DNA of 64,000 nt, taken from positions 14,484 through 78,483 of the forward strand of contig CANQAI010000001.1 in the NCBI GenBank assembly GCA_947589265.1, read 5' to 3'. Position numbers and translations under genes: made by a program. A model generated the notes under the pieces. It had not been told where the DNA came from, searched no databases, and worked only from the letters and a program-made list of their open reading frames with translations. Below, piece after piece: positions 16,880-54,478 of this stretch. This DNA is from an uncultured Clostridia bacterium. Its GTDB lineage: Bacteria; Bacillota; Clostridia; TANB77; CAG-508. Position 1 is the first letter of the stretch; each line of letters opens with the position of its first letter.

Positions 16880-17083
16880 ATGGAGTATACAAAAGATTTA
16901 ATTTTAAATGTTAATATGAAAGAAGCTAGGCATAAAATAGAAAAAACAAAATGGACAAGCAGTATTTTAAAACATATAAAAAATTATAAAACTGCATTTA
17001 TTGCTACAATTGCTTTAAGTTTATTTATTGCAATAGATATAGCATTACTAACAGGTTTTGTAAGCTTACTTACTAAAATATAA
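16880..17083 (+). CDS. Small hypothetical membrane protein (67 aa)
   Basis: Strong RBS (AGGGGG 8 nt before the ATG) and a C-terminal transmembrane helix. No recognisable family. Confidence 0.35.
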   Translation: MEYTKDLILNVNMKEARHKIEKTKWTSSILKHIKNYKTAFIATIALSLFIAIDIALLTGFVSLLTKI

Positions 17084-17102
17084 GATTGAAAGTTTTATTA
17101 CT

Positions 17103-17292
17103 AGTTAATGGTTTTATTGGTAATTGCTTAAATAGTACTACATATAGATAATTGCTTAAATAGTACTAGTTTTCTTGTTTTTCAAATGCCCGTTGCTAGT
17201 CAGGCAAATTCAAAGAAGAAGGTCAGAACGGGACCTTTCAAAACTGCGAAAAATAGTACTATTTAAGCTTTAGTGCAATTATAATTATTAAC
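17103..17292. repeat. Copy A of an intergenic element bounded by inverted repeats, with a conserved GC-rich core (MITE-like or sRNA-like)
   Basis: About 85% identical to 51936-52095. The 14-bp terminal inverted repeats GCTTAAATAGTACT...AGTACTATTTAAGC pair perfectly. There is an internal 27-nt tandem duplication and a conserved core TTCTTGTTTTTCAAATGCCCGTTG...CAGAACGGGACC...AAAACTGCGAAAAATAGTACTATT. Confidence 0.7.
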
Positions 17293-17381
17293 TACTAACA
17301 AAGGTTTATAGGTAAACCCTAGGGTATTTGAAAATTAATATGCAAAAACCTAAATATAATAAAGGAACTAAAAAATAAAAA

Positions 17382-18953: not shown

Positions 18954-18979
18954 ATAAAAACAGTATTTCTAGTAAAAGT

Positions 18980-19030
18980 AGAGAATATAATACCGTTTTG
19001 GTAATAAAATATTCTCTATTTTTGTTTTTA
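18980..19030 (+). terminator. Intrinsic terminator after the pseudouridine synthase gene
   Basis: 9-bp stem AGAGAATAT/ATATTCTCT with an internal TACC/GGTA extension, followed by ATTTTTGTTTTT. Confidence 0.55.
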
Positions 19031-51914: not shown

Positions 51915-51935
51915 AAAAATTCAAAATTTAGTTAC

Positions 51936-52095
51936 TGTTAATGGTTTTATAGTTAATTGCTCGAATAGCACTATTTTTCTTGTTTTTCAAATGCCCGTTG
52001 TAGCCAGCAAATCCAAAGAAGCACTTCAGAACAGGACCTCTCAAAACTGCGAAAAATAGTACTATTCAAGCTTTAATGTAATTATAACTATTAAC
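51936..52095. repeat. Copy B of the intergenic element bounded by inverted repeats (see 17103-17292)
   Basis: Same conserved core and terminal inverted repeats (GCTCGAATAGCACT...AGTACTATTCAAGC) with a compensatory A:T to G:C change in the stem relative to copy A. It lacks the 27-nt duplication. Confidence 0.7.
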
Positions 52096-52181
52096 AAATT
52101 TTTCACACTCTAGACATAATTAATAATTATAATATATAATAAATGTAAATAAAAACTATGCTTTTGAAAGGAAGTATAAAA

Positions 52182-54381: not shown

Positions 54382-54478
54382 CATTTGAATTATAACAAAA
54401 CGAAAAACAGAATTAAGATGTAATGTCGAAAAAGGTCGATGAAAAGTTCTTTACAAATTAGCAAAAATGGTGTATTAT

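Follow-up and report, generated by a model that had tools for sequence, protein, structure and literature searches.

The closest analogue, in design and behavior, of the repeat described here is the Correia element of Neisseria (CREE/NEMIS), a miniature inverted-repeat transposable element (MITE) of ~100-200 nt in which inverted repeats surround a conserved core (PMC10969869, PMC2649163). Tens to hundreds of copies are found, mainly intergenic and co-transcribed with their neighbors; long and core-deleted forms occur, and in-place inversion has been documented (PMC10969869, PMC2649163). The repeat under study was detected in a 64,000-nt stretch of DNA from an uncultured Clostridia bacterium (GenBank assembly GCA_947589265.1, contig CANQAI010000001.1, positions 14,484 to 78,483; hereafter “the window”). 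It shares with the Correia element an inverted repeat around a conserved core, the existence of long and core-deleted forms, in-place inversion and, presumably, co-transcription with neighboring genes. The two have no sequence similarity and belong to different phyla. Correia elements duplicate TA, whereas the Clostridia element has an 8-bp, AT-rich target-site duplication (TSD) and three nested layers of inverted repeats, and no promoter-like sites were found in it. In a further difference, its core is also present outside the MITE, in other genera, and is under measurable purifying selection.

Other described repeats share fewer of these properties. The ERIC/IRU sequences of Enterobacteria are ~127-nt imperfect palindromes that are intergenic and transcribed, and orientation-dependent effects on the upstream mRNA have been reported (PMC10969869). 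They differ from the Clostridia element in sequence, in copy-number dynamics and in TSD, and they have neither separate outer arms nor an invertible middle. ERIC sequences are unusually conserved across genera. In Streptococcus pneumoniae, the repeats RUP, BOX and SPRITE occur in clusters, insert into each other and give rise to stable RNA structures (PMC10969869). They resemble the Clostridia element in being small non-coding Firmicute repeats, but the sequences are unrelated, and BOX is modular rather than a nested palindrome. RUP duplicates TA, and we know of no invertible conserved core in RUP, BOX or SPRITE. Repetitive extragenic palindromes (REP/BIME/REPIN) are likewise hairpin-forming and located after genes, and roles in mRNA stability and protein binding have been proposed for them. 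REPs are 20-40 nt long, carry a conserved tetranucleotide and lack a TSD; the Clostridia element has an 8-bp TSD and a unit of 165-203 nt. Finally, the invertons of gut bacteria, promoter switches flipped by an invertase, are short segments between inverted repeats that are found in both orientations, as is the core described here. However, in known invertons the repeats are conserved, the content varies, and both a promoter and a cognate invertase are present, whereas in the Clostridia element the content is conserved, the repeats vary, and neither a promoter nor an invertase was seen.

Window regions 17080-17310 and 51915-52110 (copies A and B) were aligned with a mean column identity of 85%; in BLASTN, they matched at 88% identity over 150 nt (E=7e-49), and no comparable match was found elsewhere in the 64-kb window. 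The original prediction, which had singled out these two intergenic regions as look-alikes, was thus correct on this point. A probability of about 0.75 is given to the reading that the composite copies constitute an undescribed family of non-autonomous, MITE-like mobile repeats in an uncultured, spore-forming, low-GC lineage of gut Clostridia, with a core that is functional as proposed below. The composite element fits the working definition of a MITE in all respects but an identified transposase: it is non-coding, and its copies (165-203 nt) are within MITE size (<~500 bp). It is a new MITE family, unusual in that its core is nested, invertible and selectively maintained.

The full element is a nested palindrome consisting of ~30-nt outer arms, an inner inverted repeat of 14-16 bp, and a core of 82-85 nt. 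Its termini read 5'-GTTACTAG...CTAGTAAC-3', with terminal inverted repeats GTTACTAGTTAAT / ATTAACTAGTAAC (short terminus sequence, GTTACTAGTTAATGG, with its reverse complement at the other end), and the arms are partly complementary. In the consensus, the L arm (GTTACTAGTTAATGGTTTTATAGTTAATT) is followed by the left inner repeat (GCTTAAATAGTACT), the core (GTTTTCTTGTTTTTCAAATGCCCGTTGC, a variable stretch, TTCAAAGAAG, a second variable stretch, and TCAGAACGGGACCTYTCAAAACTGCGAAAA), the right inner repeat (AGTACTATTTAAGC) and the R arm (TTTAATGTAATTATAACTATTAACTAGTAAC). Conservation per column reached at least 90% in the fixed core parts and in the inner repeat, compared to 40-80% in the arms and apex; the 27 copies that lay outside the selection of the search seed had the same profile. 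The only recurrent reading frame, a small protein (MPVA...) starting at the ATG in CAAATGCCC, was considered and rejected: in 76 copies, the three frames were used 38, 20 and 13 times (the rest being unassignable), and many reading frames stop after 5-10 codons.

The family was sampled by scanning one-genome-per-species contigs for the 18-mer TTTTTCAAATGCCCGTTG, with chance matches removed. Among the matches listed, at least 103 distinct core-bearing copies were found, far more than the two initially noticed. They included at least 53 copies in the rabbit-gut metagenome-assembled genome (MAG) Lapin-005__bin59, and at least 16, 14 and 9 copies in the rabbit-gut MAGs Lapin-032__bin34, Lapin-012__bin112 and Lapin-008__bin45, respectively; several mouse and other MAGs had 1-2 copies each. 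All four copy-rich rabbit MAGs are titled “uncultured Clostridia bacterium”. The window itself contains three dispersed copies, and its flanking DNA is ~88-90% identical to that of Lapin-005__bin59. The window's own species was sampled through low-coverage ENA/Logan metagenome contigs. Numbers with the prefix L below denote the fetched contigs or loci that were compared (~0.9 Mb in total). A phage or plasmid origin was rejected, as blastn of phage and plasmid collections gave no match and a pattern scan of viral_contigs gave 0 matches. Of two scans of JGI metagenomes, one gave 0 matches and the other 40, all of them spurious high-GC sequence. Rfam, run over the entire window, gave nothing but noise (E=0.15-9), with no hit reaching the gathering threshold, so the repeat matches no family there.

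The mobility of the element is indicated by duplicated target sites and by differences in occupancy. Among 24 copies with recognizable ends, 7 had flanking octamers matching at 7 or more of 8 positions, compared to 5 of 552 mismatched pairs (0.9%), establishing a TSD length of 8 bp. Examples of the 8-base direct repeats at the outer termini are AAAAAAAT, AAATAAAA, AAATAAAT, AAAATTTT and GACAGTTA. Duplications of this length imply that a transposase acting in trans cuts the two strands 8 bp apart. At orthologous loci, the site is filled in L038 and empty in L020, and filled in L056 and not in L012. In L033, a contig of Lapin-005__bin59, the site orthologous to that of copy B retains only an R-arm fragment, while L033 has copies that are unmatched at the window's sites: one after a pilin gene and two in tandem after a histidine-kinase gene. 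With its many dispersed copies, 8-bp duplications, filled versus empty or remnant sites, and lack of a conserved open reading frame (ORF) or Rfam family, the element deserves the term “MITE-like” that had been applied to it.

The tandem pair of L033 (L033:3330-4200) consists of two full copies located right after the stop codon of the histidine kinase. At the same site in the window (54382-54430), ~45 nt bear a faint likeness to the right end of the core plus the R arm (AATTATAAC..AAAACGAAAAACAG), and this stretch may be a decayed remnant.

The copies in the window comprise the following features.

Copy A:
17097-17299, plus strand: full composite element of 203 nt (L arm, duplicated arm/repeat segment, inner repeat, core, inner repeat, R arm)
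17089-17096: left TSD, AAAGTTTT, matching the right one at 7/8 positions
17300-17307: right TSD, AAAGGTTT, a 7/8 match to AAAGTTTT
17115-17142 and 17143-17170, plus strand: imperfect tandem duplication of 28 nt (24/28 identical)
17154-17167, plus strand: left inner inverted repeat, GCTTAAATAGTACT, with an extra copy at 17126-17139
17169-17252, plus strand: core of 84 nt (nhmmer E=1.6e-35), in the same direction as the flanking genes
17255-17268, plus strand: right inner inverted repeat, AGTACTATTTAAGC

Copy B:
51931-52095, plus strand: full composite element of 165 nt, LR form
51959-51972, plus strand: left inner inverted repeat, GCTCGAATAGCACT
51974-52055, plus strand: core of 82 nt (E=1.4e-32)
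52058-52071, plus strand: right inner inverted repeat, AGTACTATTCAAGC

Copy C:
30927-31002, minus strand: arms-only (core-less) element of 76 nt, with the arms joined at a single AGTACT center
30919-30926: left TSD, AACAGTGA, which holds the TGA stop codon of the 1646-aa alpha-2-macroglobulin ORF
31003-31010: right TSD, AACAGTAA, a 7/8 match to AACAGTGA

Copy A begins 13 nt past the stop codon of a 67-aa ORF (16880-17083), copy B 16 nt past that of the spore-photoproduct-lyase gene, and copy C 0 nt after a stop codon. The TSD of copy B is unclear, unlike those of A and C, and the final 7 nt of the consensus are missing from its right terminus; in metagenome contigs L003 and L004, this copy has 99.4% identity. 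The 14-nt repeats that had been described in A and B were found where they had been placed. They do not bound the element, however: the pair is internal, and the element extends ~30 nt beyond it on each side. The internal duplication reported for copy A is present but measures 28 nt rather than 27; it comprises a second copy of the L-arm end and of the left inner repeat, which is part of covarying helix 1, and its Tandem Repeats Finder score was under the threshold. What had been taken for a solo remnant at 30955-30973 is indeed related to the element, but it belongs to a whole arms-only copy (C) with its own 8-bp duplication. In BLASTN, copy C was found as two overlapping reverse matches to positions 1-42 and 154-194 of copy A.

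Ten contigs of the window's species that carry the 67-aa gene upstream of copy A (L155-L164) were compared for strain variation at this copy. In L159, the 28-nt duplication is absent, and L155 keeps only a solo R arm following a deletion with ATT microhomology. Eight of the ten contigs break off inside copy A, which points to assembly breaks induced by the repeat. The history of a copy may be outlined as follows. The composite would have inserted into AT-rich intergenic DNA, mostly a few to a few tens of nt past a stop codon. Duplication of a segment after insertion (as in copy A), decay to solo arms, and loss of the core, which gives arms-only copies such as C, are observed events whose mechanisms are conjectural. 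The core may be lost by, for example, deletion between short direct repeats derived from the palindromic center AATAGTACTATT.

Purifying selection acts on the core and on its stem. Divergence was determined at orthologous loci between species (25 pairs) and amounted to 2.5% in the fixed core segments and 3.9% in the inner repeat, against 15% in the arms, 19% in the outside flanks and 22-28% in the apex. The rate of evolution of the core and inner repeat is thus 6-8 times lower than that of the arms, apex and flanks. In low-copy genomes, the core plus repeat showed 0 differences in 490 positions, compared to 32/550 (5.8%) in the flanks and 9/70 in the apex; concerted evolution is implausible in these genomes.

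Apart from copies A and B themselves, no strong structure lies between the genes on their two sides; both copies form long hairpins on either strand. Copy A folds as a long imperfect hairpin (-50.3 kcal/mol, z = -4.1), and copy B folds at -39.2 (plus strand) and -48.1 kcal/mol (minus strand); the z values for the folds of A and B ranged from -4.1 to -4.8. The covariation check suggested for the family was carried out on 99 copies using RNAalifold and direct pair counts. In the enclosing stem, 13 pairs had 114 cells with double changes, and 98.2% of the cells were paired; none of 500 shuffles reached the observed value, and slid controls gave 3-14 cells. The compensatory A:T to G:C change that had been noted between A and B is real and is one instance of this family-wide covariation, and the conserved structure that it was held to signify is supported by the strong constraint on the core and inner stem, together with the orientation preference described below. 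The covariation is limited to the inverted repeat and is equally expected of a DNA palindrome. Pairing between the two variable apex segments was considered and rejected (mean stem 2.22 vs. 2.14 in permutations, with no covariation).

When copies are oriented by their cores, two arrangements are seen, L arm-core-R arm and reverse-complement R arm-core-reverse-complement L arm; the core therefore takes either orientation relative to the arms. The core was inverted in place at orthologous loci. In L048 and L053, which are orthologous, the cores are 99% identical, while the 70-nt arms plus flanks match (91%) only when reverse-complemented; L079 and L030 have the arrangement of L048. The orientation of the core also differs between L054 and L052 and, at the accA-fabI locus, between L090 and the set L006, L028, L041 and L047. 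In the window's species, a single core orientation was seen in 7/7 contigs reaching the core of A and in 2/2 contigs spanning B (L003, L004), as judged from assembled consensus sequences, in which minority orientations could be hidden. The evidence for inversion thus comes from comparisons between species and not from within a population. The core presumably flips between the inner repeats through recombination or replication template switching. The latter process homogenizes the arms of repeats and inverts the spacer (PMC8604942, PMC8794818).

The elements are intergenic and close to the preceding gene. The median distance from the core to the upstream stop codon is 54 nt, of which ~45 nt are arm plus inner repeat, placing the outer end of the element close to the stop; the median distance to the next start codon is 122 nt. 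Of 60 copies that lie between co-directional genes, 47 have the core pointing with the genes and 13 against them (p=1.2e-5); counted per locus cluster, the ratio is 29:9, with 2 mixed (p=0.0017). The arms display no such preference (21:22 relative to tandem genes). Between divergent genes, no bias of the core was found (10:11 by strand; 9:9 against the sign of the skew), and between convergent genes it mostly lies along the nearer gene. No promoter, robust terminator or conserved ORF accounts for the bias. The candidate terminator that was considered, a GGTC-CCGTTCT-GACC hairpin with a T-rich tail on the minus strand, has only -3 to -7 kcal/mol; it is the same in both orientation classes and so fails to account for the bias.

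Three lines of evidence argue that the core is probably functional: it is under selection at orthologous sites, it is conserved across genera, and its orientation preference does not depend on the arms. The constraint on the core and inner stem, taken with the orientation preference, leaves room for an RNA-level role. Judging from these sequence patterns, the core's most likely role would be that of a hairpin in the 3' untranslated region (UTR) that is read by a host factor; alternatives would be a protein-binding site at the DNA level and a core that is itself a mobile unit targeting hairpins. In the weakest step of this proposal, the core would be transcribed in the 3' UTR of the upstream gene as a long hairpin with conserved internal loops, and a host factor would recognize it and affect 3'-end formation, processing or stability. 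A more specific version is put forward only tentatively, and we lean against it: the ~110-nt core plus inner stem would be an undescribed structured nucleic-acid motif, strongly selected in several genera of gut Clostridia, that was captured by a MITE in one lineage and carried to the 3' ends of 50-100 genes, where it may serve as a shared, orientation-dependent post-transcriptional tag or protein-binding DNA site for a host factor, with in-place inversion as a means to switch it on or off at single genes.

Several results weigh against the reading of a MITE with a functional core. Neither the window nor the ~0.9 Mb of fetched loci yielded a cognate transposase or a full-length insertion sequence (IS) with these termini, and in several of the filled/empty comparisons the difference is not a clean excision or insertion. 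The core of mouse and other MAGs (~87% identical) lies between different inverted repeats of 13-16 bp, without the arms and with no visible TSD; the repeats are, for example, TAGCATAATATGATA/TATCATATTATGCTA, TATAGTAGTATTTAC/GTAGAATACTACTATA and TAGCATAAAGGATATG/CATATCCTATGATGCTA. These armless cores in distant genomes show that the core unit has a history independent of the MITE arms. Copy C alone has no stable fold, and the outer arms by themselves pair weakly. As to a role in RNA, no promoter-like site was found in A, in B, in the region around C, or in the core on either strand, and G.U and A.C mismatches in the stem are equally frequent (15 each). The latter equality indicates that the constraint is one of Watson-Crick symmetry, as in a DNA palindrome, and such symmetry is also an outcome of replication template switching. 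Lastly, the GC skew of 8-kb blocks simply tracks gene direction, and replication and transcription are thus not separable as causes of the orientation bias.

Searches for an autonomous partner yielded only candidates that were rejected: pairs of termini 260-4000 nt apart enclose nothing but pilin/sortase or chemoreceptor genes, and a larger insert in L069 held nothing element-like on reading. Clean empty sites were not found for the window's copies; the orthologue of the B site in L033 has the R-arm fragment mentioned above, and the window sites orthologous to the L033 copies are too diverged for junctions to be defined.

The independent history of the core bears on a first rival explanation, in which mobility or function resides in the core hairpin alone, and it inserts into the apex of existing hairpins, including the palindromic center of an older arms-only MITE, such that the composites are nested insertions. 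The presence of the core in unrelated inverted repeats of other genera without arms would be expected if this were so, as would its occurrence in either orientation relative to the arms, the existence of arms-only copies (copy C; L051, L039, L033) and the far greater divergence of the arms than of the core; moreover, ATAGTACTA flanks the core as a direct repeat, like a target duplication. However, the flanks in distant genomes are true inverted repeats, not direct ones, with no common target visible, and the inner repeats covary and look homologous from one locus to another. The apex is as diverged as the arms, which shows that the core is not simply younger, and for L048 and L053, with a 99% identical core in opposite orientation within 91% identical arms and flanks, in-place inversion is the simpler account. 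Nested insertion is accordingly considered unlikely.

The same holds, at a slightly lower estimate, for the notion that the copies are structured small-RNA (sRNA) genes or cis-regulatory RNAs whose dispersal is incidental, the DNA itself not being mobile. The strong covariation of the enclosing stem, the purifying selection on the core, the orientation bias relative to genes, and the conservation across genera would all suit an RNA family; orthologous proteins of the core-bearing mouse and other MAGs are only 58-77% identical to those of a rabbit MAG, and the core is thus conserved better than proteins. Yet the 8-bp TSDs and the presence/absence polymorphism are those of mobile DNA, and no promoter or terminator is found in or around the element. 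Furthermore, both strands fold, the RNA fold of the disfavored strand being slightly better in 85/99 copies; G.U is as frequent as A.C, the apex lacks covariation, and Rfam returned only noise at E<10. The original prediction had offered a structured sRNA family as its second option, and these results speak against it.

The inversion of the core raised a third explanation, a phase-variation switch (inverton) in which a site-specific invertase flips the core and turns neighboring genes on or off. A segment flanked by inverted repeats and found in both orientations, even at orthologous loci, has the outward form of such a switch, and the same action has been proposed for Correia elements (PMC10969869). 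This account is nevertheless very unlikely: the core contains no promoter-like site on either strand, no recombinase was found among the 50 window ORFs, the contigs reaching the core of A (7 of 10) and spanning B all have the window's orientation, the family numbers at least 50 copies per genome, and the combination of locus-specific inner repeats with conserved content is the opposite of what known invertons have. A REP/REPIN-type palindrome spread by an IS200/IS605-like, single-strand-DNA transposase (REP-associated tyrosine transposase, RAYT) would also be a high-copy, long, hairpin-forming intergenic repeat, might derive its orientation bias from the replication strand, and would fit the distant copies without TSD, but it is hardly credible here, as the composites have 8-bp TSDs, which do not arise by HUH single-strand transposition, the unit is far longer than a REP, the conserved GTAG-type 5' tetranucleotide is absent, and no Y1 transposase was found in the fetched DNA.

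Two further observations concern the core. Inspection of its consensus by eye, e.g. at 17180-17245 of the window, revealed three T(T/C)TCAAA motifs on the same strand (TTTCAAATG, GTTCAAAGAAG and CTCTCAAAACTG), spaced by ~31-34 nt, or roughly three helical turns; this spacing could mark a putative protein-binding face. In L044 (7730-7900; MAG ABMPRH_45_1), the core upstream of folD has an extra apex insertion of ~65 nt with its own hairpin (CTGAGGTTGT...ACAACCTCAG). The orthologous copies in L008 and L037 lack this insertion, which may be another small element nested in the apex.

The window has a G+C content of 27.8%, and 44 of its 50 ORFs are on the plus strand. Its genes are those of housekeeping in spore-forming Clostridia, including type IV pilus ATPases, RNase J, UvrC, an Agr system, alpha-2-macroglobulin, YabP/YqfD, FeFe hydrogenase, RNase G and spore photoproduct lyase. 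Pfam found neither a transposase nor a recombinase among the 50 ORFs, Rfam found no tRNA or other RNA family in the window, and exact-protein look-ups of two genes flanking the elements gave no match. Directly after copy C, at 31021-31064, is a strong hairpin (AUAGAGAACAU...AUGUUCUCUAU; -22.1 kcal/mol, z = -6.7) preceded by an A-run, which is probably the terminator of the alpha-2-macroglobulin gene; copy C would then sit in the 3' UTR of that gene. A 52-nt inverted match to this hairpin is located at 18979-19030, after a pseudouridine synthase gene.

In practical terms, the repeat breaks short-read assemblies of these Clostridia. MITEs are usually viewed as decaying selfish DNA, but in this family the core is measurably kept constant at orthologous loci while the rest decays. 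It is shared between genera at a nucleotide identity above the amino-acid identity of orthologous proteins, and its orientation, independent of the arms, tracks the upstream gene. The core is thus a candidate for a new structured motif of interest to research on RNA and on DNA structure, and the family offers a concrete, testable case in which a mobile element would have spread a functional hairpin among numerous genes of an uncultured gut lineage.

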